Origin: Polyangia bacterium
GTDB taxonomy: Bacteria; Myxococcota_A; Polyangia; Nannocystales; Nannocystaceae
Direction: 5' to 3'
DNA: 42,819 nucleotides
Assembly: GCA_030430565.1 (NCBI GenBank)
Contig: JAUIKS010000008.1
Location: 303,225 to 346,043, forward strand
Shown: piece after piece, positions 1,437-33,799 of the stretch
Layout: the number at the start of each line of letters is the position of its first letter
Position numbering within the stretch: position 1 is the stretch's first letter
The notes under the pieces: model-generated
What the model was told of the DNA's origin: nothing
Seen by the model: the letters and a program-made list of their open reading frames with translations, nothing else
Databases searched by the model: none
Translations under genes and position numbers: made by a program

Positions 1437-3212
1437 CTACATCGACATCGAGCCCTTGCGGAAGTCGGTCTTGCCCAGGTGCGCGTTGATCAGCACGGGC
1501 ACGCCGCCGCGGGCTTTCTCCTTGGCCTTGGCGAAGGTGTCGGCGATGTCGGCCGAGCGCGTGAGCTTGAAGCCGGCGCCGCCGAAGCCCTCGGCCGCGA
1601 CGTGGTAGTCGGTGCGCGCGAGCGGGCAGCCGACGTCGTCACCGAGGATCTCGATCTGGTCGCGGGCGATCTGCGTCCAGCAGGCGTCGTTGCCGACGAC
1701 CGCGATGACCGGGAGCTCGTGCCGCGCGAAGGTGTCGAACTCGGGGAGGCTGTAGCCGACCGAGCCGTCGCCGTAGATGATCCAGACCTCGGACTCGGGG
1801 CGCACGAGCTTGGCGCCCAGGGCGAAACCTGCCCCGACGCCCAGGGTCCCGAACACGCCGGGGTCGAGCCACGACAGCGGCCCGCGCGGGCTGACGATGT
1901 AGGACGCGGTGGCGACGAAGTCGCCGCCGTCGGCGACCAGGATGCTGTCGTCGGCGAGCGCCTCCTCCATGCGACCGCAGATGTCGAGCGGGTCGACGAG
2001 CGAGACGCCGTCGACCTCGGACTTCGCCGCGATCGCCTCCGCCGCCTTGGCGCCCTTCTCCCGGATCTCGGTGTCGCGCGCGCTGTTGGCCGCGCTCAGC
2101 TCCTCGATCCACGAGCTCCAGCGGCCCTTGGGCGCCGGGCACTCGCGCGCGAGCAGCTGCAGGAAACGACCCGCGTCGCCGTGCACCGGCAGGTTCGGGC
2201 GGCGGTTCTTGACCATCTCGGCGACGCTGCGGTTGGCCGCGATGTAGAAGGCCTTGCGCCCGATGTGACGACCGTAGTCCATGCGGAAGTCGCAGGGGAC
2301 GCCGGCGAGCAGCACGACGTCGGCCTTCTTGAGCGCCTTGCGCCGACCGTGGCGCATCTGCAGATCGTGGCCCTTGCCGAGCAGGCCGCGCGCCATGCCC
2401 GAGAGGAACACCGGGATGCCGAGATCCTCGACCGCGTTGACGAGCGCGCGGACCTCCCCGGGGACCGACATGGCCTGGCTGCCGATGACGAGCACGGGGC
2501 GCTCGGCCTTCTGCACGCGCTGGGCGGCGCGGCGCACGAGCATGCGCGCGGGCTTGGGGATCCGCGTGGCCGAGGCGTCGTGGACCTCGACCTTGTCGGC
2601 GCCGGCGAACATCCGCCGTGTGTGGATGTCGAGGTAGGTCGTGAGCGCGCGCTCCCCCAGGCTCGGCTTGCGCCCGCTCGCGGACGACTTGGAGCTGTAC
2701 CAGCTGCGCACGAGCTCCGCGTCGTAGAGGAGGTCAACCGGGCACTCGAGGAACACCGGGCCCGGCACGCCGCTGGTCGCGACCTTGAAGGCGTGCTCCA
2801 GCGCCGGCACCAGGTCCTTCACGCGCTTGGCGGTCGCCGCCCACTTCACGTGCGGGCGCAGGAGCGCCATCTGGTCAATGTCCTGCAGCGAGCCGCGGCC
2901 CTTGAGCACCGTCGCCGCGGCGCCGCCGAGCAGCACGACGGGCGACTGCGCCATCTGGGCGTTCTTGACCGCCGTGATCGTGTTGGTGAGGCCGGGCCCC
3001 GCGGTCACGGCGGCGACCCCGGGCACGCCGGTGAGCCGCGCCACCGCGTCGGCGGCGAACACCGCGTTGACCTCGTGTCGCACGTCGACGACCCGGACCC
3101 CGCGCCGCTTCGCGCCGACGAGGATCGGCGAGATGTGCCCGCCGCACAGCGTGAACAGCCAGCGCACCCCTTGCCTGCGCAGGACCTCCGCAATCAGATC
3201 TCCGCCGTTCAT
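1437..3212 (-). CDS. Thiamine-diphosphate-dependent enzyme, acetolactate-synthase large-subunit-like / ILVBL (2-hydroxyacyl-CoA lyase)-like
   Basis: 591 aa starting at the ATG at 3210-3212; the ORF track begins one codon earlier at a TTG. GGGAG RBS 8 nt upstream. Pyr (N-terminal), central and PP (C-terminal) TPP-enzyme domains, including a GDG...N Mg-TPP motif ([10 protein letters not shown]...VGNDACW). Confidence 0.8.
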
Positions 3213-3257
3213 CAAACTCTCTCCCGCTGGTTGGAAAACGTTGCTGGCCCGACGCGT

Positions 3258-3671
3258 CTAGCTCGGGCTGTTCTCAAGAACATGTCGCTTCGGTGTGAAG
3301 CAGGTGAAGGCGCCGGTGAAGACGACCGCGCCGTCGCGCGTGACCTCGGCGTCGACCATCAGCTTCTTGCCCTCGATCGGGCGCCGCCGCGCGCTCGCGA
3401 CGAGCGCGTCGCCGACGACGACCGGCTTCAGAAACCGCGTCTCGGCGGCGCCGAGGACGACGTTCGGGTGGTTGATCGCCAGCATCGCCGCGTAGTCGGC
3501 GAGCCCGAAGATGAAGCCGCCGTGGACCAGGCCGCGCTCGTCCGCCGCCATCTCGGGGACGGTCGTGAGCTGAACCTCGGCCTCGCCCTCGGCGATGCGC
3601 GCCGGCCTCCCGACGAGGCGCGGGTCGATCCGATCGTGTGTGTTCTGGGGATGGTGCTGGTCGTCGTTCAT
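3258..3671 (-). CDS. Hotdog-fold acyl-CoA thioesterase (PaaI/4HBT family)
   Basis: 137 aa with an ATG start. Contains the [14 protein letters not shown] motif typical of PaaI-type thioesterases. Co-directional with the TPP enzyme directly downstream, 42 nt apart. Confidence 0.7.
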
Positions 3672-3804
3672 GGCGAGCCAACGCGCTGAGCCGAGCCTCC
3701 GCCGCTCGCCGATGTGGGCGAGCGTGGGCGAAGGTGCGCTCAGGACCGCGCGGCGCCTTATAACACGCGAGAGCCGCCCGGAAAGGCCGTTCCGTAAAAC
3801 CGCG

Positions 3805-3831
3805 CGCAGACCCGCTTGAAGCGGGTCTGCG
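3805..3831 (-). terminator. Intrinsic terminator hairpin downstream of the epimerase gene
   Basis: Perfect 11-bp inverted repeat CGCAGACCCGC-TTGAA-GCGGGTCTGCG, about 50 nt past the stop of the 3882-4802 minus-strand gene. On the minus strand it is followed by GGTTTTAC, a T4 tract. Confidence 0.6.
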
Positions 3832-3881
3832 TCACCCGAGCGCCGCTCGTGCCGACGCCCTCGCGTCGACGGGATCGGGCG

Positions 3882-4802
3882 TCAGCCGAGCAGGTCACGC
3901 AGCGCCGGCTCGAGCTCCGGGTGGCGAAACTCGAAGCCGAGCCGGGTCAACGCGGCCGGGGCCATGCGCTGCCCGCCGAGGATCGCCTCGGCCATCCCGC
4001 CGACGGCCAGGCGCAGCGCGAACGCGGGGACGCGCATGATCGTCGGCCGGTGGAGGATCTTGCCGACCGCGCGCGTGACCTCGGCGTTGGTCGCTGGCGC
4101 CGGCGCTGACGCGTTGAGCGGGCCGTCGCAGCGCTCATCCGAGAGCGCCCGCTGGAAGATCCGCACGAGGTCCTCGAGGTGGATCCACGGCATGTACTGC
4201 TCGCCGGAGCCGAGCGGTCCGCCGACGCCGAGCCGGATCGGCTGCGCGAGCTTCTCGAGCGCGCCCCCGCCCCGCCCGAACACGATCCCGATCCGGACGA
4301 TCGCGACCCGCACGCCGAGCGTCCGCGCCCGCGCGGCTTCGCGCTCCCACGCGACGCAGACCTCGGCGAGGAAGTCGTCGCCCGCGGGCGCGCGCTCGTC
4401 GAGCGTGCGCTCGCCGCCGTCACCGTAGTAGCCGGAGGCTGAGGTCGACACGAGCACGGGCGGGCGTCGCTCGCCGAGCCGCCCGCAGGCCTCGACCAGC
4501 GCGCGCGTGGTCTCGACCCGGCTGTTCATGATCCGGCGCTTCCACTCCGCGCTCCAGCGCCGACCCGCGACCGACTCGCCCGCGAGGTTCACGATCCCCG
4601 CGCATCCCGCGAGCGCCTGGTCGAGCGCGTCCTGACCGGCGCCTGTTGCGACGAGCTCGACCTCGTCACCCAGCCGCGAACGCGCGCGCTCGGGGTCCCG
4701 GACCCAGGCGCGCACGCGGTGCCCAGCCGAGCGCAACGCGCTGACGAGCGGCGCACCGACGAAGCCCGTCGCGCCGGTTACGAAGATAGTTTGCTGCTCC
4801 AT
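3882..4802 (-). CDS. NAD-dependent epimerase/dehydratase family protein, TIGR01777/YfcH (SDR39U1)-like
   Basis: Most likely start is the internal ATG at 4800-4802, giving MEQQTIFVTGATGFVG, a Rossmann GxxGxxG motif at the N-terminus. About 306 aa. The ORF track extends a further 26 codons upstream. Confidence 0.75.
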   Translation of the reverse strand: MEQQTIFVTGATGFVGAPLVSALRSAGHRVRAWVRDPERARSRLGDEVELVATGAGQDALDQALAGCAGIVNLAGESVAGRRWSAEWKRRIMNSRVETTRALVEACGRLGERRPPVLVSTSASGYYGDGGERTLDERAPAGDDFLAEVCVAWEREAARARTLGVRVAIVRIGIVFGRGGGALEKLAQPIRLGVGGPLGSGEQYMPWIHLEDLVRIFQRALSDERCDGPLNASAPAPATNAEVTRAVGKILHRPTIMRVPAFALRLAVGGMAEAILGGQRMAPAALTRLGFEFRHPELEPALRDLLG

Positions 4803-5109
4803 GGTCTTTCGGCCTTGTTGGCTGGCGTCGTCCGCCTCGCTCGCGCCGACGTCGGTAGACGTAGCATGTCGCCCGCGCACGGTACACCGCCGCCACCGAC
4901 GTCTGCGGCCGACGGACCGCGCGGGCTATGTTTCGCGTAGTAGCGATGACGCGACCCGAACCTACCGCCGCCGCTCGCCGCGAGCGCGCCGCGTCGACGA
5001 ACGCGAGCGTTGATGGCGAACTACCTCGCGGGCGAGCGGGCGCGACGCGCCTGCGCTGGACCGTCGATCGCGTCGACGAGACCTACGGGCGACCTCCGCC
5101 CCCCAGCGC

Positions 5110-22570: not shown

Positions 22571-24412
22571 CTACGCGCCCGCCTCGACCGCGCGGAGGGC
22601 CACGATCGCGCGCCGCAGGTCCTTGCGCAGGCAGCCCAGGCAGTCACGCCGCTTAAACGCCTTGCCGCACTCGTCCCGCGGGAGCTTGCTCATCCGGCGC
22701 AGCAGCGGGAGCACGCGCGGGTCGCCGAGCTGCTCCAGCTCGAGCAGCACCGGCTGCTTCTCTTTGCAGGTGCTCGCGCGCTCGATCGCCGCGGCCAGGC
22801 GCGCGTAGTCGGGGACCTCGTCGGCGGGCTCGTGCTCGAGGATCGTCTCGATCGACCTCTTGAGCCGGTTGGGTCGCTTGCCGTCGATCACGACCGCGAT
22901 GGGCTCCTCGAGCTCGGCCGGCGCCGACGCGCCGCGTGATCCCGCGCCTGCCCGCTTCGACACCTTCGCTGTCGCGGCCGCGGGCTCCTCCACGTCTTCG
23001 TCGTCGCGCGACGACGCGCCGTCGTCGGACGATCCCGTCAGCGCGACGACCAACCCACCCACCAGCGCGACCAGCAGCAGCGCCGCGCCAGCGACGATCG
23101 CGAGGTTGCGCCCCGGCGCGCGGGACCGAAGCTCCCCCCGCGCCCCCGCGAGGATGCCGAGCGGGCTGTTCGGGCTCCGCGACGCCGACAGCAGCCGCTC
23201 CGCGGCGGCGGTCGGGGACTCGGCGATCTGCGTGACCGCGACCGGCTCGCGCGCTCCGCTCGGGGGCCCCGCCGGGAACACGACGCCGGCCGCGACGCTC
23301 AGCTCCTTGGGCGCGCCGTCGGCGAGCGCGTTGAGCCGCGTGCAGACCTCGACCGCGTCGCGCGCGCGCGCGGAGGCGTTTCGCGCCAACAGGCGCTCGA
23401 CCAGCTCGACCAGCTCCGCCGGCAGCTCCACGCCCTCGACGCCCGAGAGCGAGGGTGCCTCCTGGGTCAGCTGCATCTCGACGAGCGACTCCAGATCGTC
23501 GGCCGGCCACAGCCGCCGCCCCGAGATGCACTCCCACAGCAGCACGCCGAGCGAGTAGAGGTCGGCGCGCGCGTCGACGACCCCGCCGATCGCCTGCTCC
23601 GGCGCCATGTAGCCGGGCGTGCCGAGCACGACGCCGACGCGCGTGAGGACCGCGCCGTCGTCCGCGACCGGCGAATTCTCGGTGATGCGGGCCAGCCCGA
23701 AGTCGAGCACCCGCGCGAACGCGCTGCCGTCGGCCTGGCGCTCGATGATCAAGTTGTCCGGCTTGAGGTCGCGATGGATGATCCCCAGGCCGTGCGCCAT
23801 GGCGAGCGCGTCGGCGATCTGCCCGCCGAGCCGACACGCGAGCCCCCACGGCAGCGGCCCGCGGGCGAGGATCGCCTCGAGGCTCTGACCGTGCACCAGC
23901 GTGCTCACGAGGAAGGCGCCGCCCTCGAGGAGCTCCCCGTAGTCCATCGCGCCGACGATGTGCGGGTGGTCGAGCAGCGCCGTCACCTTCGCCTCGCGTT
24001 CGAAGCGCGCGAGCACCTCGTCGTGGTTGAGCGTCTCGGCGCGGATGAGCTTGACCGCGACCTGCTTGTTGAGCTTGAGGTGCTCGGCGCGGTACACCGA
24101 GCCCATGCCGCCCTCGCCGATCTTGTCGAGGATCCGGTAGCGCCCCTCGATGACGCGCCCGATCATCGGGTCGATCGCCACGCCGAGCTCCGCCTCGTCC
24201 GCGACGACCTGCGCGGTCAGGCCCGCGGGCCCCTGCTCCTCGCTCGGCGCCGCCGCGGGCGCGGGGGCCGGCTCGATCGGGCGCGGCGTGACGAACATGG
24301 TGCCGCCCTTGGCGAGCGCGCTCCAGTCGGGCGCCCCGGGCTGCGCCCCCTGCAGCTGGGCCTCTGAGCCGATGCCGGAGAACGCTCCGCCCTGCGAGTC
24401 ATCGTTCGTCAT
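22571..24412 (-). CDS. Eukaryotic-like Ser/Thr protein kinase with single TM segment and C-terminal extracytoplasmic region
   Basis: ATG at 24410-24412 (MTNDDS); the ORF track starts 20 codons earlier. Hanks-type motifs: GEGGMGSVYRA (Gly loop), VAVK, HRDLKPDN (catalytic loop), DFG, GTPGYMAPE. TM helix LAIVAGAALLLVALVGGLVVAL. Confidence 0.85.
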   Translation of the reverse strand: MTNDDSQGGAFSGIGSEAQLQGAQPGAPDWSALAKGGTMFVTPRPIEPAPAPAAAPSEEQGPAGLTAQVVADEAELGVAIDPMIGRVIEGRYRILDKIGEGGMGSVYRAEHLKLNKQVAVKLIRAETLNHDEVLARFEREAKVTALLDHPHIVGAMDYGELLEGGAFLVSTLVHGQSLEAILARGPLPWGLACRLGGQIADALAMAHGLGIIHRDLKPDNLIIERQADGSAFARVLDFGLARITENSPVADDGAVLTRVGVVLGTPGYMAPEQAIGGVVDARADLYSLGVLLWECISGRRLWPADDLESLVEMQLTQEAPSLSGVEGVELPAELVELVERLLARNASARARDAVEVCTRLNALADGAPKELSVAAGVVFPAGPPSGAREPVAVTQIAESPTAAAERLLSASRSPNSPLGILAGARGELRSRAPGRNLAIVAGAALLLVALVGGLVVALTGSSDDGASSRDDEDVEEPAAATAKVSKRAGAGSRGASAPAELEEPIAVVIDGKRPNRLKRSIETILEHEPADEVPDYARLAAAIERASTCKEKQPVLLELEQLGDPRVLPLLRRMSKLPRDECGKAFKRRDCLGCLRKDLRRAIVALRAVEAGA

Positions 24413-24735
24413 CAAGCGCCACTCACCGTCGCCAGCCGGTCGCGCGCGCGAGCGCGGCGCCGATCCACCCACGACGAGAGTACCGCGTGCGCGCGCTCGG
24501 GGACTAGCCCCATCGCGCGCCGTGGTTCTGCCGCGAACGACGAGCGCACGAGGCTACAGCAGATGCTCGCGCGTCGCTTCGCGTTCGCCTCGTTCGCGCT
24601 TCGGTCCGCTCGCTGCATTTCCGCCCCCTTGCCGATCGCGCGTCGAGACGTGATGAGCGATGGGGACTCGCGCGAACGGACCGACGACGACCGGGCCGCG
24701 GGCCCGCGCGCCATCGCGCCGAGCGGGCGCGCGAC

Positions 24736-26592
24736 TCAGGCGCGCTCCTGCGTGATCCCGTAGCGCTTGAGCTTGTTCAAGAATGTCCGCAGGGGCATCT
24801 TGATCAGCCGGGCCGCCTGGGTCTTGTTCCCGCCGGAGGCGCGCATCGCCTCGGAGATCCGGCGCACCTCGAGCTCGCGGATCTCCTCCTGCAGCGGGCG
24901 GAAGCGGGGCGTGTCGTCCTCCCCGGGCGCCGGGCGCTGCGGAGCCGCGCCCGCGCCCGCGCGCGGCGGCGGCTCCTGCTCCAGCAGATCTCCGACGTGC
25001 CAGGACTCGAGCGTGCTCCCCGAGATCACGCTCGCGGCGTACTCCATCGCGTTGCGGAGCTGCCGGATGTTCCCGGGCCACGAGCGCGCCGCGAGGTCCC
25101 GCATCGCGTCGCCCGTGATCACGAGCGGCGCGCGGCCCTGGCGGACGCAGGCGTCCGTCAAGAACTTGCGCGCGAGGATGGCGAGCTCGCGCGGCCGGTC
25201 GCGCAGCGGCGGCAGCCACAGCCGCGCACCACCTAGCCGAAAGAACAGGTCTTCCCGGAACCGCCCCTCGCTGACCGCGTCCTTGAGCTCGCGGTGGGTC
25301 GCCGCGATCATCCGGACGTCGATCGAGATCTCGGAGATGCCGCCGACCCGCATGATCCGCTGGCTCTCGAGCGCGCGCAGCAGCTTGGCCTGCGCGACCA
25401 GGCTCAGCTCCGCGACCTCGTCGAGGAACACCGAGCCGCCGTTCGCCGCCTCGAGCAGGCCGACCTTGGTCGCGTGCGCGCCCGTGAAGGCGCCCCGCTC
25501 GTGGCCGAACAGCTCGCTCTCGATCAGGCTGTCTTGCAGCGCCGCGCAGTTGAGCGCGACGAGCCGCCCGCTCGCCCGCGGCGACCAGTGGTGTATCGCG
25601 CGCGCGACCAGCTCTTTGCCGGTCCCGGTCTCGCCGCACACGAGCACCGGGATGTCCGAGGCCGCGACTCGCTCGGCGATCCCGTACACGCGCAGCGTCG
25701 CCAGGTCCGCCGCGACGATCTCGACGTCACCCGTGTGGATCATGCGATAGGCGTCCGTCGCGTCGATGACCAGGCCGGGCGCCGCCGTGTCGACGGCCGC
25801 GCGCGCGGCCGCGATCATCGTCTCGATCTGCGCGCCGTCGCGGGGACAGCACGCGAAGCCCATCCGGCACCCCGGGTCGACCCGCGAGAGCGCCGCGTGC
25901 ACCCCCCGCGCCAGCTCGCGCCCGTCCTCGGCGTCCGCCTCCGGCATCAGCAGCAGCAGCACGCCGTCGGGCTCGGGGGCCGCCGTGTCGATCGCCCGCA
26001 GCTGCTTCATCAGCACCGGCTCGATCGCGCGGTGATCCGCGGCGGGCAGACGCACCGCGACGACGCAGAGGTCGCGCCCGAAGTTGACCGCGCGCAGTAG
26101 CTCCTCGCCGAGCCGCGCGCGGAAGTCCGCCTTGTCGATCATGCGACGCCCGCCGCGCGCCCGCCCGCGCGCGTGGTAGATGATCGTCGTGTTCGCGATC
26201 GAGATGACGTCGCCCGGGTGGAGCAGGTGCGGCGCGTCGATCCGCTGGTCGTTGACCGCGGTGCCGTTCTGGCTGCCGAGGTCGAAGATCGTCGCGCGGC
26301 CGTCCTCGATCACGAGCTGCGCGTGCCGCCGCGACGCGAGGTAGTCGACGATCTGCAGGCCGACCTCGACCGCGCGGCCGATCAACACGACGCCGGCGCG
26401 CGGGAGCGTGAAGACGAAGGCCGAGTCTCGCTGCAGCACCATCAGGTAGCCCGGCGCGTCAGCCTGCCCGTCGGCCTGCTCGTCCGCGCTCGACGAGCTC
26501 GGCGCCGAGAGGGTGTTGTGCAGCGTCGGCGCCGACCACAGGTGCCCCTTCGGTTTGCGCGGGGCCGCGCCGCCGCTGTTGCTCTCGTCCAT
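24736..26592 (-). CDS. Sigma-54-dependent transcriptional activator (bacterial enhancer-binding protein) with N-terminal FHA domain and C-terminal Fis-type HTH
   Basis: 618 aa with an ATG start. FHA-like GRAVEVGLQIVDYLASRRHAQLVIEDGRATIFDLGSQNGTAVN. AAA+ sigma-54 interaction domain: Walker A GETGTGKE, ESELFGHERGAFTGA (GAFTGA motif), Walker B SVFLDEV, arginine finger region RQLRN. C-terminal HTH KTQAARLIKMPLRTFLNKLKRYG. Confidence 0.85.
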   Translation of the reverse strand: MDESNSGGAAPRKPKGHLWSAPTLHNTLSAPSSSSADEQADGQADAPGYLMVLQRDSAFVFTLPRAGVVLIGRAVEVGLQIVDYLASRRHAQLVIEDGRATIFDLGSQNGTAVNDQRIDAPHLLHPGDVISIANTTIIYHARGRARGGRRMIDKADFRARLGEELLRAVNFGRDLCVVAVRLPAADHRAIEPVLMKQLRAIDTAAPEPDGVLLLLMPEADAEDGRELARGVHAALSRVDPGCRMGFACCPRDGAQIETMIAAARAAVDTAAPGLVIDATDAYRMIHTGDVEIVAADLATLRVYGIAERVAASDIPVLVCGETGTGKELVARAIHHWSPRASGRLVALNCAALQDSLIESELFGHERGAFTGAHATKVGLLEAANGGSVFLDEVAELSLVAQAKLLRALESQRIMRVGGISEISIDVRMIAATHRELKDAVSEGRFREDLFFRLGGARLWLPPLRDRPRELAILARKFLTDACVRQGRAPLVITGDAMRDLAARSWPGNIRQLRNAMEYAASVISGSTLESWHVGDLLEQEPPPRAGAGAAPQRPAPGEDDTPRFRPLQEEIRELEVRRISEAMRASGGNKTQAARLIKMPLRTFLNKLKRYGITQERA

Positions 26593-26878: not shown

Positions 26879-27568
26879 ATGCCTACCGCTCAGCCCAGCT
26901 CGCCGTACATGCCCCCGCCCGCCCGCCACGCGCGGGAGCGCGCGCGGAGGTACGGCGGCACGCGACGCGCTCCGCTCCGACGACGCGCGCCCCCACGCAG
27001 TGAAGACGAGTGTCTCGCCGCCGCGCGCCGCGGCGACCGCGAGGCGCAGGGGCAGCTGTTTCGCCGGCACGCGCGCCGCGTCACGAGGACGATCCTGCGC
27101 GTCACCCGTGACGAGAGCGGCGTCGAGGACTTGGTGCACGAGGTGTTCATCCGCGCCTTCAACAGCGTCCGCCGGTTCCGCGGCGACGCCCGGATCGAGA
27201 CCTGGCTGCACGTCATCGCCGTCAACCTCGCGCGCACCTGGCTCGACCGCGAAGCGCGGAGGCGACGGCGCGACGCGTTCGCGGTCACGCGCGCGCACGA
27301 GGAGCCGCTCAGCCCCGATGAGCACGTCGAGCGCGCGCTCCACCGCGAGCGCCTGCACACCGTGATCGCGACGCTCCCGAAGATCTTTCGCGACGCCTTC
27401 ATCGCCCGCGCCGTCGACGGGCTCTCGCTGCGCGAGGCCTCGCGCCGGCTCGGCGTCGGCGTGAGCACGGTTTCGTTTCGCGCCCAGCGCGGTGAGCAGC
27501 TGGTCTGCGCGGCGCTCGGCCTGGAGTGGGTCTCGCCCAGGCGACGCCGCGCACAGCCGGCGACATAA
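26879..27568 (+). CDS. ECF (group IV) sigma-70 family RNA polymerase sigma factor
   Basis: Start taken at the internal ATG at 26879 (alternative ATG at 26909); the ORF track extends 74 codons upstream. Region 2 (VEDLVHEVFIRAFNSVRRFRGDARIETWLHVIAVNLARTWL) and region 4 HTH (DAFIARAVDGLSLREASRRLGVGVSTVSFRAQRGEQ). Confidence 0.75.
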   Translation: MPTAQPSSPYMPPPARHARERARRYGGTRRAPLRRRAPPRSEDECLAAARRGDREAQGQLFRRHARRVTRTILRVTRDESGVEDLVHEVFIRAFNSVRRFRGDARIETWLHVIAVNLARTWLDREARRRRRDAFAVTRAHEEPLSPDEHVERALHRERLHTVIATLPKIFRDAFIARAVDGLSLREASRRLGVGVSTVSFRAQRGEQLVCAALGLEWVSPRRRRAQPAT

Positions 27569-27676: not shown

Positions 27677-27816
27677 ACGCCGGAGGGACGGGCCGCGCGC
27701 GGTCCGTCCTGCTTACACGGCCCCGCGCTGACGCGAGACCGCGAGCTGCTCGGCAGACGAGCGCGGCGCCCAGCGCTATGCCCGCGAGATACAAGACGAT
27801 GATCACGATTAGCCGA

Positions 27817-29058
<1,242 letters not shown>

Positions 29059-29085
29059 CGCGCCGCCGCGGGCGGCTGACCAAAG

Positions 29086-29115
29086 ATGACCCCGAGGACC
29101 TTTCCTCGGGGTCAT
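29086..29115 (+). terminator. Strong stem-loop (13-bp perfect stem, 4-nt loop) downstream of the GD-repeat lipoprotein gene
   Basis: ATGACCCCGAGGA-CCTT-TCCTCGGGGTCAT, 28 nt after the stop at 29058. No downstream T tract, which is common in high-GC bacteria. Confidence 0.55.
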
Positions 29116-29167
29116 GTCGTTCGCGCCGCGCGTGAGGTGGTACTCTCGGGGCGCTCAGAGGTTGACC

Positions 29168-29689
29168 ATGTACGTCTGCGATCACTGTCAGCGCCACTAC
29201 CGGGCGCGCGAGCCCCACTGCCCGTTCTGCGGCCCGACGCCGCGCAGCGTCGCGGCGTCGACGCTGCTGACGCTCGGCCTCGGCCTCGCGCTCGGCGTAG
29301 CGACGACGAGCTGCGGGGACGACAAGACGAACGAGAGCGGGAACGAGAGCTCGCAGACCTCGACCGACGCGGACGACTCCACCACGACCTTCTACGCGGG
29401 CCCGGGCCCCAGCACGGAGCTCTCGAGCTTCGGGACCACCGCGGCCGAGACCACCGACGCGACCGCGGGCACGACCGGCACCGACCCGGGCACGGAGACC
29501 GATACAACCACCGGCGACAGCACGGGCCAGAGCACGACCGACGCGACCGAGGGCGACAGCAGCTCGAGCGCGTCGGACTCCGACGCGACGACAGAGGCGA
29601 CGACCGAGGCGACGACAGGCGCGACGACGGGCGACAGCTCGGGCTCCGGCGGGGACCTCGACGTCGACCCGCCGCGCGCAGACAAGTAG
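29168..29689 (+). CDS. Zinc-ribbon / single-pass membrane (or lipo-)protein with long Thr/Ser/Asp/Gly-rich extracytoplasmic tail
   Basis: Internal ATG at 29168 gives MYVCDHCQRHYRAREPHCPFCGP (CxxC-x10-CxxC zinc ribbon), then the hydrophobic AASTLLTLGLGLALGVATTSCGDD, then about 110 residues of low-complexity T/S/D/G. The ORF track starts 18 codons earlier, inside the terminator hairpin. Confidence 0.55.
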   Translation: MYVCDHCQRHYRAREPHCPFCGPTPRSVAASTLLTLGLGLALGVATTSCGDDKTNESGNESSQTSTDADDSTTTFYAGPGPSTELSSFGTTAAETTDATAGTTGTDPGTETDTTTGDSTGQSTTDATEGDSSSSASDSDATTEATTEATTGATTGDSSGSGGDLDVDPPRADK

Positions 29690-29725
29690 CGAAGTTTAGG
29701 CGCGCAGAGAGCTTCAGGTGACGCC

Positions 29726-31060
29726 GTGAGCCTTGAGGACACCCGCCGGCGCCTGCCGATCGTCGACTCGCTGCCGCGACCGAAGACGCGCTCGCTCCTG
29801 CCGGTCGCGCCGGGACAAGGTCCGCGCCCGCGGCTCGCGGTGTGGGAGTTCACGCTCGCCTGCGACCAGCGCTGCCTCCACTGCGGACCCCGTGCCGGGC
29901 GGGCGCGACGGGACGAGCTGAGCACCGAGGAGGCGCTCGCGCTCGTCCGCGAGCTCGCCGCCGCGGGCGTGGGCGAGGTCGCGCTGATCGGCGGCGAGGC
30001 GTACCTGCGAAACGACTTCATCCTGGTCATCCGCGCGATCCGTGAGACTGGGATGACGGCGACCATGGTCACCGGCGGCTACAACCTGACGCGCGCGCGC
30101 GCGGAGGCGGCGGTCGAGGCCGGGATCAGCAGCGTCAGCCTCTCGATTGATGGCCTCGAGGACAGCCACAACCGAGTCCGCGACACGCCCGACAGCTGGC
30201 GCCGCGCGTTCCGGGCGCTCCGCCTGCTGCGCGAGGCCGGCTCGCGGATCTCGGTCAACACGCAGCTCAACGTGTGGACGCGCCACGAGCTCCCCGCGCT
30301 GCTCGAGCTGATCGCCGCCGAGGGCGCGTGGGCGTGGCAGCTGCAGCCCACGGTCGCCCACGGCAACGCGGCCGATCACCCCGAGCTGCTGCTGCAGCCG
30401 TACATGTACCTGGAGCTCTTCGACGCCGTGGAGCGCGTGCTCACCCGCGCCGAGTCGCTCGGCGTGCGGGTCTCGCCCGGCAACAGCCTCGGGTACTTCG
30501 GTCCGCTCGAGCACCGCCTGCGGAGCAGACAGATGCGCCGCACGGGGCACTTCCGGGGCTGCGAGGCCGGGCGCTCGACGATCGGCATCGAGAGCAACGG
30601 GATGATCAAGAACTGCCCGAGCAACGGCGGCCCGACGAATATCGGCGGGAGCTGGCGCGAGCGCAGCCTCGAGGAGCTGTGGACAGAGACCCCGCAGCTC
30701 AGCTCGCTGCGGGCGCGGACGGTCGAGGACCTCTGGGGCTACTGCCGCGAGTGCTACTACGCCGACCTCTGCCTCGCCGGCTGCACCGCCGTCTCGGAGC
30801 CGCTGCTCGGTCGACCGGGCAACAACCCGTACTGCCACCATCGCGCGCTCGAGCTCGACAAGCTCGGTCTGCGGGAGCGCGTCGAGCTCGTGCGGCCGGC
30901 GACCGCGGAGGCCTTCGCTAGCGCGCTGTTCCGCGTGGTCCGTGAGCACAAAGACGCGGCGGCGCGCGAGCGCCACGGCGGCCCCGTCGCGATCGAGGAG
31001 CCCCGGACGTCGCGGCTCGGAGATTGGCGGGGGCCCGGCGCGCCCGTTCCGCAGAGGTGA
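29726..31060 (+). CDS. Radical SAM enzyme with C-terminal SPASM domain (peptide/protein-modifying maturase family)
   Basis: 444 aa with a GTG start at 29726 and GGTGA 5 nt upstream. CxxxCxxC radical-SAM cluster motif FTLACDQRCLHCG. GGEAYLRNDF (GGEP-like). SPASM Cys motifs CEAGRSTIGIESNGMIKNCP and WGYCRECYYADLCLAGCTA. Confidence 0.8.
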   Translation: MSLEDTRRRLPIVDSLPRPKTRSLLPVAPGQGPRPRLAVWEFTLACDQRCLHCGPRAGRARRDELSTEEALALVRELAAAGVGEVALIGGEAYLRNDFILVIRAIRETGMTATMVTGGYNLTRARAEAAVEAGISSVSLSIDGLEDSHNRVRDTPDSWRRAFRALRLLREAGSRISVNTQLNVWTRHELPALLELIAAEGAWAWQLQPTVAHGNAADHPELLLQPYMYLELFDAVERVLTRAESLGVRVSPGNSLGYFGPLEHRLRSRQMRRTGHFRGCEAGRSTIGIESNGMIKNCPSNGGPTNIGGSWRERSLEELWTETPQLSSLRARTVEDLWGYCRECYYADLCLAGCTAVSEPLLGRPGNNPYCHHRALELDKLGLRERVELVRPATAEAFASALFRVVREHKDAAARERHGGPVAIEEPRTSRLGDWRGPGAPVPQR

Positions 31061-31063
31061 CGG

Positions 31064-31618
31064 CTATCGCGTCGCCGCGGCGAGCGAGCGCAGCACGCCG
31101 GGCTCGAGGCGCGCGAGCGCGGAGCGGATGAAGTCCCCGGTCTCGACGCCCTGCGCGGCGCTGTAGCGGCGCGCCTGCAGGGCCATGTCGAGCTTGTCGC
31201 AGGCCTTCACGAAGCGCCCTTCTGGGCTCGATCCGTCCTCGTACTCTCGCCAGAGCGCCGTCAGCTCGCGTCCCCGCGGTCCTAGCGGCGCGAGCATCCC
31301 CGAGAGCGCCGCGAGCTCGCGCGCCCGCTTCTCCTCCGCCGGCACGCCGTCGTGGGGCGTGATATCGCCGACCCGGACCTCGGCGAGATCGTGAATCACC
31401 GCGATCGCGAGCGCGCGCCCGCGGTCGAGCGCCGGGGGACACAGCGCCAGCACGAGCCACGCGACCCCCCACGAGTGGGCCGCGACCGACTCGGCCCCCT
31501 CGACGCCCACGCGCAGCCAGCCGGCGCGCGTAACCTCTTTAAGCGCGAGCGCCTCGAGCAGCTGCTCGCGCAGCTCGTGCAGCTGCGCGTCGGGACAGGG
31601 CGGCTCATGTTCGCGCAC
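31064..31618 (-). CDS. HD-domain phosphohydrolase (YfbR-like 5'-deoxynucleotidase family)
   Basis: 184 aa with a GTG start. The H...HD motif is present (ESVAAHSWGVAWLV...IAVIHDLAEVRVGDITPHD), and CDKLDMALQA matches YfbR-like HD proteins. Convergent with the radical-SAM gene, 3 nt gap. Confidence 0.7.
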   Translation of the reverse strand: MREHEPPCPDAQLHELREQLLEALALKEVTRAGWLRVGVEGAESVAAHSWGVAWLVLALCPPALDRGRALAIAVIHDLAEVRVGDITPHDGVPAEEKRARELAALSGMLAPLGPRGRELTALWREYEDGSSPEGRFVKACDKLDMALQARRYSAAQGVETGDFIRSALARLEPGVLRSLAAATR

Positions 31619-32080: not shown

Positions 32081-32200
32081 ACCGCGTGAGAGCGTGCCAT
32101 CAAAGCGCCGACTGTTTTCCGGCGTGTTTGTACGCGCGACATTGCGAGCTGTTTGTTCGCTGGCTCGCTGCTGTCCGCGATCGCATGAGAGAAGGTGGAG

Positions 32201-33799
<1,599 letters not shown>

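Follow-up and report, generated by a model that had tools for sequence, protein, structure and literature searches.

The window analyzed here, a 42,819-nt stretch of DNA from a Polyangia bacterium of the Nannocystaceae, contains two adjacent genes that probably encode a substrate and its modifying enzyme, as judged from comparative sequence analysis. The upstream gene specifies a zinc-ribbon-headed pre-lipoprotein and the downstream gene a radical SAM/SPASM enzyme. With moderate confidence, we favor the model as a whole in which the two form an enzyme-substrate module of the splicease type, with a maturase acting on a lipoprotein precursor in five steps. The initial annotation had proposed a substrate/maturase pair, and this proposal is supported by three lines of comparative genomics, namely the classification of the enzyme, the synteny of the two genes, and their co-diversification. 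The features of the locus are listed in Table 1.

TABLE 1. Features of the zinc-ribbon lipoprotein/radical SAM enzyme locus (positions in the window).
Feature	Position	Strand	Details
Hairpin (perfect, 13 bp) separating the zinc-ribbon gene from the upstream lipoprotein gene	29086..29115	+	
Gene of zinc-ribbon/lipobox/T-S-D-G-rich pre-lipoprotein, probable substrate	29168..29689	+	173 aa, GC3 0.95
Four-Cys zinc ribbon	29177..29230	+	MYVCDHCQRHYRAREPHCPFCG; C4-x2-C7-x10-C18-x2-C21, CPFC knuckle
Uncharged h-region closing on lipobox-like TTSC with Cys49	29246..29314	+	22 aa, ...GVATTSC49GDD
Acidic low-complexity tail	29315..29686	+	124 aa, net charge -23
TTFYAGP with the sole tail Tyr (Y76), proposed modification site	29384..29404	+	
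Spacer between zinc-ribbon and enzyme genes	29690..29725	+	36 nt; AGGTGA 4 nt ahead of the GTG start
Gene of radical SAM/SPASM maturase, splicease-type superfamily	29726..31060	+	444 aa, GC3 0.93, GTG start
CX3CX2C, ligands of the radical SAM [4Fe-4S] cluster	29861..29884	+	C46, C50, C53
SPASM region with seven Cys	30560..30835	+	C279, C297, C340-x2-C343-x5-C349-x3-C353, C370

The 173-aa protein has the architecture described in the initial annotation, i.e., a CxxC-x10-CxxC zinc ribbon, a hydrophobic segment running up to a lipobox-like cysteine, and a T/S/D/G-rich tail; profile searches yielded no Pfam or NCBIfam match for it. All four cysteines of the ribbon, together with P19 and F20, are invariant across 36 aligned family members, as is Cys49 (36/36). 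The net charge of the N-terminal part is +2, which is also the family median. The zinc ribbon is probably cytoplasmic, and it may serve as a recognition or leader element for the enzyme. The lipobox of bacterial lipoproteins follows the pattern [LVI][ASTVI][GAS]C, with the cysteine around positions 15–35; in the window protein this residue lies as far in as position 49 because the zinc-ribbon extension precedes it. A relaxed lipobox pattern fits 78 of 88 family members, the commonest contexts being LAGC, LAAC, LFAC, and LSGC, whereas the T-T-S-C of the window protein is atypical compared with the L-[A/S/F]-[G/A]-C of most relatives. We know of no precedent for a zinc ribbon placed N-terminally to a lipoprotein signal peptide. 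When the 53-aa N-terminal alignment was used as a profile to search 5.8 billion proteins, only 6 matches were returned, the profile being too short for a database of this size.

Once exported, the tail presumably extends outside the cytoplasm. Across 80 family tails, it is composed mainly of T (24%), S (17%), G (15%), and D (13%), with a median charge of -20. A "GDL" near the C-terminus of the window protein was considered as a family motif and rejected, as it is missing in the orthologs; this "GGDL" is probably coincidental and stands outside the helical A-x-G-D-L-A-x-M context.

The assignment of the downstream product to the radical SAM/SPASM enzymes was upheld by matches to the Pfam domains Radical_SAM (PF04055, E 2e-23) and SPASM (PF13186, residues 279–344, 24.8 bits against a cut-off of 21.5). 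The three cluster-binding cysteines that characterize the radical SAM superfamily show no variation when the window enzyme is aligned with its relatives (100% conserved), and each of the seven cysteines in the SPASM region is kept in at least 99% of 80 relatives; the latter would be expected to hold two auxiliary clusters. An AlphaFold2 model of the enzyme has pLDDT values mostly above 85 (residues 1–440), and the closest solved folds are those of SkfB, PqqE, SuiB, and anSME, all of them radical SAM enzymes. PADLOC found just a generic, viperin-level radical SAM similarity.

Profile classification, one of the checks suggested in the initial annotation for telling a peptide maturase from a sulfatase maturase or a cofactor-biosynthesis enzyme, placed two peptide-maturase families on top. 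The best NCBIfam match is TIGR03913 (404.9 bits against a cut-off of 591.75, profile positions 19–393 of 477), followed by TIGR04103 (388.5 bits against 725); the window enzyme is 46–49% identical to annotated members of these families. Scores for cofactor families were 133 bits for NirJ2 (cut-off 500), 123 for AhbD (500), 94 for MftC (265), and 69 for PqqE (381), with MoaA at 133 bits or less. No sulfatase-maturase family occurs among the best 25 NCBIfam matches listed. A genetic pairing of a SPASM enzyme with a lipoprotein has a precedent in another family, TIGR04133 (rSAM_w_lipo, "radical SAM/SPASM protein"), part of a radical SAM/lipoprotein system of Bacteroidota, but the window enzyme scores only 130 bits against its cut-off of 425 and belongs to a separate clade.

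Members of both top families are encoded next to proteins with X-Y-G sites. True members of TIGR03913 (GDL motif peptide-associated maturase) are 47–49% identical to the window enzyme, and their partners carry (P/L/M)-Y-G-V sites. For one of them (47% identical), the downstream neighbors are DUF1843 proteins in which (V/A/P)LYGV sites recur, and a member from B. pseudomallei is preceded by proteins with TPYGV and AMYGV. In contrast to these DUF1843 neighbors, the window partner has no DUF1843 domain, and the window enzyme falls under the family cut-off. For TIGR04103 (nif11-class peptide radical SAM maturase 3, cyanobacteria), the identity to the member from Nostoc sp. C057 is 45.7%. The Nostoc locus combines the X enzyme with a Nif11 precursor ending in SIALYGLPPELF (...ALYGLPP) and, downstream, a Y-like protein of small size, whereas the window system has neither a Nif11/NHLP precursor nor a downstream Y-like small protein, and its enzyme is again under the cut-off. 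A search seeded with the Nostoc enzyme retrieved solely other cyanobacterial members, none of them from Pleurocapsa.

The splicease systems PlpX, PcpX, and RhaX are traced in PMC11414181 to studies by Morinaka in 2018 and Scott in 2022, and a catalogue of 939 predicted splicease systems is said to be given by Scott et al. in Chem (2022). The nearest known counterparts are PlpX-PlpY-PlpA, PcpX, and RhaX-RhaA (PMC11414181; PMC10533398; PMC11626197). In type I spliceotide pathways, whose described architecture is that of the Nostoc locus, PlpX excises tyramine at XYG (PMC11414181), and PlpA-derived splice tags have the sequence PIRPLYGLPI (PMC10533398). Beyond the original cyanobacterial systems, spliceotide pathways are mostly binary two-gene modules without a Y protein (PMC11414181). 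The window system resembles spliceases in having a radical SAM/SPASM enzyme gene adjoining the gene of a probable ribosomal substrate, and in the conserved substrate tyrosine between small residues, which forms X-Y-G in about half of the Nannocystaceae family motifs. The initial annotation saw no resemblance to a known precursor family; this should be revised, since the conserved tyrosine motif resembles the X-Y-G core found in substrates of spliceases. The likeness of the enzyme itself was measured through the Nostoc sp. C057 enzyme and the TIGR03913 members and not through PlpX, PcpX, or RhaX themselves. Several differences are also evident. The probable substrate is neither Nif11, NHLP, nor DUF1843 but a lipoprotein precursor headed by a zinc ribbon, with a disordered tail that is acidic and ~100 aa long; no activating Y protein was identified in the window system, where the zinc ribbon might take that part; and the window site is F-Y-A-G-P, with Y-T in other Nannocystaceae clades, whereas published spliceases act at X-Y-G (PMC11414181, PMC9811515). 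No statement that spliceases accept a residue other than Gly after Tyr was found.

The pairing recurs throughout the Nannocystaceae. The synteny sample comprised 81 loci, namely the window and 80 related loci from this family. At 63 of the 81 loci, the enzyme gene has a zinc-ribbon/lipobox/TSDG gene of matching architecture within 400 bp, in four arrangements, and at 68 of them it has one within 1.6 kb, so that the synteny which the initial annotation had named as a touchstone for the pair was indeed found. The remaining 13 loci, several of which are on short contigs, have no recognizable zinc-ribbon partner within 1.6 kb. Farther from the enzyme, 23 zinc-ribbon/lipobox genes were found in about 1.2 Mb, and many of these are tandem copies. 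Zinc-ribbon genes often stand in tandem groups of two to four beside a single enzyme, and Nannocystaceae have at least 3–5 enzyme-substrate pairs per genome. No third gene that might correspond to a Y protein is conserved around the enzyme across the related loci, and, of the window genes compared, neither the sigma-54 activator, ECF sigma, GD lipoprotein, HD protein, MauG-like protein, nor histidine kinase is conserved beside it. A PMT_2 glycosyltransferase, considered as a conserved partner, was found at two loci only (L001 and L003).

Apart from one to three copies of the motif x-Y-[G/A/T]-[G/A]-P (FYAGP in the window), the family tails are nearly free of tyrosine. Only 148 tyrosines occur among the 8,960 residues of 80 tails, and 122 of them fall within Y[GAT][GAPVSTD][PAGSV], compared with 26.5 ± 4.5 in shuffled tails (maximum 38). 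At least one motif is present in 75 of the 80 tails. At the family level, the residue after the motif tyrosine is Gly (79/145), Ala (41/145), or Thr (8/145). Small residues and Pro aside, the family tails show no other conserved residue alongside the tyrosine that could, for example, be its partner in a cross-link. Orthologs of the window protein contain SFYAGP or SYYAGP, and in a scan of the 29 large window ORFs with the strict motif, TTFYAGP was the only match. Enzyme clades correspond to motif classes, these being [F/Y]YAGP, SFYTVSG, TYAGPD, ADYGGAPP, FIYGxPD, PLYGP, LPYGAPMP, and AYGGPP. The X-Y-(+1) triple is common to the nearest enzyme neighbor in 40 of 64 cases, compared with 6.4 after permutation (maximum 17 in 1,000 permutations). 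By this comparison, enzyme clades and substrate motif classes have diversified together. Adjacency at 63 of 81 loci and co-diversification argue that the pairing of the enzyme with the zinc-ribbon protein is not due to chance. AlphaFold2 single-chain fusions (the full substrate with the enzyme, and the enzyme with tail residues 50–106) gave no docking of the motif, with substrate pLDDT of 25–40; the peptide part had no alignment and only one chain was modeled, which makes this outcome uninformative rather than negative.

The layout of the locus is consistent with a two-gene unit. The 36-nt gap between the genes, reported in the initial annotation, was read from the sequence, and the genes are probably co-transcribed. 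The 112-nt intergenic region containing the upstream hairpin folds at -61.6 kcal/mol (z -3.8), a value equaled by none of 200 shuffles, and the hairpin has no T-tract on the + strand. It is probably a transcript boundary, in which case the pair would be its own unit. Position 29086, from which the initial annotation counted the finding, is the first base of this hairpin and the ATG of a non-coding ORF in a different frame (29086–29721, GC3 0.67); it does not belong to the zinc-ribbon gene. Missed tiny ORFs at 29059–29167 and after 31060 were rejected, as nothing fits there; the former region holds the hairpin and a ribosome-binding site, and the latter a convergent HD-domain gene ending at 31064, just past the enzyme gene. 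The upstream GD-repeat lipoprotein, suggested as a second substrate, is not supported in this role: homologs of it are missing near related enzymes, it lacks the strict motif, and its only loose match falls within the signal peptide of the protein itself.

Based on these observations, the following course of events is proposed. As its sequence and family conservation show, the 173-aa protein consists of a four-Cys zinc ribbon, probably cytoplasmic, followed by a hydrophobic segment like a signal peptide, the lipobox cysteine, and an acidic tail that is disordered. Synteny, motif conservation, and co-diversification suggest that the adjoining enzyme modifies the lone tail tyrosine, T-F-Y76-A-G-P, in the cytoplasm before export. 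By analogy with the related splicease family, the likeliest reaction would be a tyramine-equivalent excision. The lipobox points to subsequent Sec export of the modified precursor and lipidation at Cys49, with signal peptidase II probably cutting off the zinc ribbon and signal peptide, which would thus act as a built-in leader. More speculatively, this would yield an acidic, disordered polypeptide that is anchored by its lipid and bears an electrophilic ketoamide; it might act as a tethered inhibitor of proteases.

The same pair might instead use the same tyrosine for another chemistry, such as a C–C or C–O cross-link, beta-hydroxylation, epimerization, or oxidative side-chain cleavage without backbone re-ligation. 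The Ala after Tyr in the window and TYAGPD clades and the Thr in the SFYTVSG clade depart from the published X-Y-G sites (PMC11414181, PMC9811515), the window enzyme is under both equivalog cut-offs (TIGR03913 and TIGR04103), and SPASM enzymes overall catalyze many reactions, its closest folds being SkfB, PqqE, SuiB, and anSME. We nevertheless consider another chemistry rather unlikely, given that the enzyme is 46–49% identical to enzymes with classic X-Y-G partners, that about half of the family motifs are Y-G, with PLYGP and AAYGG near known cores, and that the tyrosine lacks a conserved companion that could serve as a cross-link partner.

Readings that dissolve the enzyme-substrate relationship itself are less easily reconciled with the data. 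The zinc-ribbon protein would be a membrane-anchored accessory or regulator, either anti-sigma-like, as the initial annotation considered, or an activator like the splicease Y protein, if the real substrate were encoded elsewhere. Its zinc-binding N-domain, single hydrophobic segment, and extracytoplasmic tail do resemble anti-sigma factors, and the ECF sigma gene reported in the initial annotation (26879–27568) is real and lies 1.6 kb upstream of the zinc-ribbon gene, but the lipoprotein gene and the hairpin intervene, ECF-like sigma genes occur within 8 kb at just 9 of 80 loci and never adjoin the zinc-ribbon gene, and the CxxC-x10-CPFC motif differs from the HxxxCxxC of anti-sigma factors. 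An enzyme clade with no zinc-ribbon partner (L067, L072, and L076) adjoins a 274–303-aa protein instead, which would favor this reading; the C-terminal ends of these proteins read AAYTAAP (L067), AAYTAGP (L072), and QVYTERPARVG (L076). An accessory role of the zinc-ribbon protein leaves unexplained why it is these proteins that carry the tyrosine motif and why the motif varies together with the enzyme clade, and two to four tandem zinc-ribbon genes per enzyme are typical of precursors, so we regard it as improbable. It is highly improbable that the enzyme serves cofactor biosynthesis or sulfatase maturation next to an incidental zinc-ribbon neighbor. Homologs bear database names such as "heme biosynthesis protein" (Plesiocystis) and "subtilosin biosynthesis protein AlbA" (Enhygromyxa), and weak NCBIfam matches to NirJ2, AhbD, PqqE, and MoaA exist, but these score 49–133 bits against cut-offs of about 231–650, compared with 389–405 bits for the peptide-maturase families, no sulfatase-maturase family is among the best 25 matches listed, and the recurrent adjacency and co-diversification cannot be incidental.

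Extended to the family, the splicease-type model leads to a tentative proposal of lipoprotein spliceotides, which we put forward as possible rather than probable. The zinc ribbon and the lipoprotein signal peptide together would act as the leader, a splicease-type enzyme would install a ketoamide or another Tyr-derived modification in the cytoplasm, and Sec, Lgt, and signal peptidase II would provide for export and leader removal, leaving a disordered, electrophile-bearing lipid-anchored polypeptide in the myxobacterial envelope. Each genome would have several co-diversified, possibly mutually specific pairs, some of which would accept Y-A or Y-T outside the X-Y-G rule.

If the model is true, radical SAM chemistry that edits the backbone, as known for secreted peptides of small size, would extend to lipoproteins, and the ordinary lipoprotein-processing pathway would double as the leader-removal step. 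In addition, the co-evolved enzyme/motif pairs of the family (D-Y-G, T-Y-A, F-Y-A, L-Y-G, P-Y-G, I-Y-G, and F-Y-T) make up a natural panel, which could broaden the sequence rules for site-specific protein labeling with spliceases. Native spliceotide end products were still elusive as of a 2022 review (PMC9811515), and the model, if true, would answer, as far as this family is concerned, how such products are released and where they act. It would likewise give a function to hundreds of pairs now named "radical SAM protein" and "hypothetical protein" in the Nannocystaceae, and the names "heme biosynthesis protein" and "AlbA" on homologs of the enzyme would be corrected.

The window has a G+C content of ~72% and encodes a radical SAM/SPASM enzyme with a zinc-ribbon protein immediately upstream, an arrangement described in the initial annotation and confirmed by the domains, motifs, and 36-nt spacing read in the sequence. 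The enzyme matches the Pfam families Radical_SAM (E 2e-23) and SPASM (over the gathering score); its CX3CX2C motif (C46/C50/C53) and seven-Cys SPASM pattern are kept in at least 99% of 80 relatives. The zinc-ribbon protein begins with MYVCDHCQRHYRAREPHCPFCG, which is followed by an uncharged 22-residue stretch closing with T-T-S-C49 and by a 124-residue tail with a net charge of -23. Besides the Tyr motif described below, a second short conserved element, limited to the window clade, is the C-terminal ending shared with the L001 and L003 partners (...DLDVDPPRADK, ...LWEELDPAKAP, ...LWHEADPAKRPVP). The previously proposed start at 29086 had to be abandoned, since it falls in a non-coding alternative frame (GC3 0.67) and coincides with a 13-bp hairpin. 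This hairpin has no T-tract on the forward strand, may represent a terminator or else a repeated extragenic element, and sets the pair apart from the upstream lipoprotein gene. There is no space on either side of the pair for the additional tiny ORFs envisaged earlier.

Coordinates of features in the window and in loci around relatives of the enzyme (L numbers)
Feature	Locus	Coordinates	Strand	Remarks
Radical SAM/SPASM enzyme	window	29726-31060	+	444 aa, GC3 0.93
Zinc-ribbon protein gene	window	29168-29689	+	173 aa, GC3 0.95; 36 nt upstream of enzyme gene
Shared C-terminal ending	window	29650-29686		
Hairpin, perfect 13-bp, G+C-rich, 4-nt loop	window	29086-29115		between lipoprotein and zinc-ribbon genes; z -3.8
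GD-repeat lipoprotein gene	window	27778-29058		
CGGCGA repeat, ~35x	window	28041-28252		in lipoprotein gene
ACCGAG repeat, x4.8	window	27928-27956		
MauG-like di-haem peroxidase	window	32195-33799		
Ser/Thr protein kinase and adjoining FHA-domain sigma-54 activator	window	22571-24472 and 24736-26592	-	upstream of ECF sigma gene
PMT_2-family glycosyltransferase	L003 (= L085)	2970-4943	-	
PMT_2-family glycosyltransferase	L001	2459-4375		
Divergent neighbour	L067	7039-7950	-	end AEAAYTAAP
Divergent neighbour	L072	7049-7873	-	end AAYTAGPGAA
Divergent neighbour	L076	7054-7959	-	end QVYTERPARVG
Tandem zinc-ribbon/lipobox genes	L015	9568-11578		
Tandem zinc-ribbon/lipobox genes	L045	9440-11690		
Tandem zinc-ribbon/lipobox genes	L052	3968-9886		
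Longer partner	L062	9329-10363		
Longer partner	L078	9528-10580		
Longer partner	L049	1877-2869		
Longer partner	L052	3968-4972		

A scan of one genome per species yielded 111 relatives of the enzyme. The best 80 of the 111 loci were kept. They all belong to Nannocystaceae or related Polyangia, and a single genome often has 3-5 paralogs; the closest relatives are confined to Nannocystaceae (Nannocystis, Enhygromyxa, Plesiocystis, Paraliomyxa, and related metagenome-assembled genomes). When all six frames were searched for C..C-x6-14-CP.C, nearly all loci yielded a gene of the same architecture, in which a zinc ribbon is followed by a hydrophobic segment that ends in Cys and by a T/S/D/G-rich tail. 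The synteny that the initial annotation had proposed to check was borne out, with the partner located <400 bp from the enzyme gene in 63 of 81 loci, window counted, and <1.6 kb in 68. The 67 partner genes within 400 bp are arranged convergently downstream (33), on the same strand upstream (16) or downstream (15), or divergently (3); only 23 farther copies occur in ~1.2 Mb, many belonging to tandem arrays. Residues C4, C7, C18, P19, F20, C21, and C49 are invariant in 36 aligned N-termini. No conserved homologs of the sigma-54 activator, ECF sigma factor, GD-repeat lipoprotein, HD protein, MauG-like haem protein, or histidine kinase were found beside the enzyme in related loci, and thus the conserved unit is a two-gene module.

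The tails are rich in T (24%), S (17%), G (15%), and D (13%), and contain only 148 Tyr among 8,960 residues. The majority of these tyrosines (122/148) lie within Y-[G/A/T]-[G/A/P...]-[P/A...], as compared with 26.5 +/- 4.5 in shuffled tails (maximum 38 in 500). At least one copy of the motif, whose consensus is [G/A]-[A/S]-[D/T/A/F/L]-Y-[G/A]-[G/A]-P, is present in 75 of 80 tails. The window protein has a single copy, T-T-F-Y76-A-G-P, the sole strict match in 29 large window ORFs scanned, and its orthologs have one or two copies of SFYAGP or SYYAGP. When the enzymes are placed in a neighbour-joining tree, every clade shows a distinct motif class and, in most cases, a distinct gene arrangement; the motif classes are [F/Y]YAGP (window clade), SFYTVSG, TYAGPD, ADYGGAPP, FIYGxPD (longer proteins), PLYGP, LPYGAPMPEPLW, and AYGGPP (tandem arrays). 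Of 64 cases, 40 have the same X-Y-(+1) triple as their nearest enzyme neighbour, with 6.4 expected by permutation (maximum 17 in 1,000). Since the motif differs between paralogs of one genome and agrees between orthologs across genera, the sequences indicate that the enzyme and its putative substrate have co-diversified, beyond mere shared ancestry. One enzyme clade (L067, L072, L076) has no zinc-ribbon neighbour; a divergent 274-303-aa protein without Pfam match adjoins instead and may represent an alternative, non-lipoprotein substrate class. Its Tyr-containing ends are a further sign that the Tyr motif is the element shared by all these systems.

In L015, L045, and L052, a single enzyme gene is accompanied by three or four zinc-ribbon/lipobox genes in tandem, each with its own AYGGPP- or ADYGGP-type site; tandem precursor genes are typical of multi-precursor RiPP loci. 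In the longer partners (330-350 aa), the zinc ribbon, lipobox, and Tyr motif are all kept, and they are followed by a C-terminal domain that contains Cys (...CVAFFEPG.AP.G.E..G.C..P) and matches no Pfam family.

The best NCBIfam matches to the window enzyme are two peptide-maturase families, each under its curated cut-off: TIGR03913, the GDL motif peptide-associated maturase (405 bits vs 592), and TIGR04103, 'nif11-class peptide radical SAM maturase 3' (389 bits vs 725). A set of 1.84 billion cluster representatives, searched exhaustively, contained 408 relatives with E < 1e-30. One true TIGR03913 member (771 bits; 47% identity to the window enzyme) is followed by two DUF1843 proteins with repeated VLYGV, ALYGV, PLYGV, and VPYGS sites and 'GDL' motifs, and a Burkholderia pseudomallei member (48.7% identity) is preceded by DUF1843 and DUF1842/1843 proteins bearing TPYGV and AMYGV. 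Upstream of a relative that is closer to TIGR04103, a 61-aa peptide ending in CARPLYGVWV is encoded. The Nostoc sp. C057 enzyme, which carries the annotation TIGR04103 (45.7% identity), is encoded with a Nif11 precursor ending in GGRGSIALYGLPPELF and then a 71-aa protein. Because such relatives adjoin X-Y-G proteins, the window enzyme is assigned to a superfamily consistently paired with X-Y-G-bearing proteins, in which it forms a branch of its own, specific to Nannocystaceae and with a substrate of a new type. To our knowledge, spliceases are still without a solved structure; in sequence and in fold, the closest proteins of known structure are SkfB, PqqE, SuiB, and anSME, which are peptide-modifying SPASM/twitch enzymes. 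The AlphaFold2 model is confident over essentially all 444 residues; an N-terminal recognition domain of the PqqD type would not fit, since the radical SAM core begins at ~residue 36. Two AlphaFold2 substrate/enzyme fusion models gave no docking signal.

Conserved adjacency, the Tyr motif, and co-diversification support the protein-modification pair that the initial annotation placed at the core of its interpretation; its view that the substrate resembles nothing known is amended, as the core motif is splicease-like. The HMM classification contradicts a sulfatase-maturase or cofactor-enzyme class, as the next NCBIfam families (NirJ2, AhbD, MftC, PqqE, MoaA) score <=133 bits. An anti-sigma role of the zinc-ribbon protein, also considered earlier, is unsupported: only 9 of 80 loci have an ECF-like sigma factor within 8 kb, in no case adjacent, and the Cys pattern differs from the HxxxCxxC of zinc anti-sigma factors. 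The GD-repeat lipoprotein was rejected as a second substrate, having no homolog near related enzymes and no strict motif, and being separated by the hairpin. A different chemistry on the same tyrosine is the serious rival, to which we give a fairly low probability. The published splicease site is X-Y-G, whereas the window has Y-A and other clades have Y-T; the window enzyme scores under both equivalog cut-offs, and its relation to PlpX/RhaX is inferred via family members.

Among the neighbouring genes, the CGGCGA hexanucleotide encodes the (Gly-Asp)n run of the lipoprotein, whose ~260-aa C-terminal domain has no Pfam match; ACCGAG forms a second short repeat. The MauG-like peroxidase has a poly-Asp run following the signal sequence and scores 163 bits against TIGR03981 ('His-Xaa-Ser system-associated MauG-like protein'), under the 340-bit cut-off; in L035, a paralogous radical SAM gene has a homolog of the peroxidase (70% identity) ~6.5 kb upstream. 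Since MauG-type enzymes modify proteins, a link is conceivable. The Ser/Thr kinase and FHA-domain sigma-54 activator are a typical myxobacterial signalling pair. A PMT_2-family glycosyltransferase is directly divergent to the enzyme gene only in the two closest Nannocystis orthologous loci (L001, L003); O-glycosylation of the Thr/Ser-rich tails might take place once they are exported.

In the published type I spliceotide pathway (PMC11414181), a Nif11/NHLP precursor ('A') is encoded with a radical SAM enzyme ('X') and a small activator ('Y'), a layout matched by the Nostoc sp. C057 locus. Engineered PlpA-derived tags have the form PIRP(L/G)YGLPI (PMC10533398), and the survey of Scott et al. 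2022 covers 27 confirmed pairs and 939 predicted systems in 189 genera (PMC10533398, PMC10849128). No paper joining spliceases and myxobacteria was found in the literature searched; that survey may already list these enzymes. The enzyme class itself is already known. As far as we can tell, the new features, judged from sequence, are a substrate in which a zinc ribbon plus lipoprotein signal peptide would act as the leader, sites at which Tyr is followed by a residue other than Gly, and a lineage-specific expansion with several apparently co-evolved pairs per genome.

The architecture of both proteins, their adjacency, the Tyr motif, its co-diversification with enzyme clades, and the enzyme family relationship are established here. 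We propose that the cytoplasmic enzyme modifies Y76 of the tail ahead of export, most likely by tyramine excision converting F75 to a ketoamide. The zinc ribbon would remain cytoplasmic, because the N-terminus is net positive and the tail strongly acidic, and may serve as a recognition or activator element. The invariant Cys would be a lipobox residue (LAGC, LAAC, or LSGC in most relatives; atypical in the window, with Cys at position 49), and Sec export, lipidation, and signal peptidase II cleavage would discard the zinc ribbon and signal peptide. More speculatively, the lipid-anchored, ketoamide-bearing tail might act as a tethered protease inhibitor, by analogy with free spliceotides, which are described as Ser/Cys protease inhibitors (PMC11626197).
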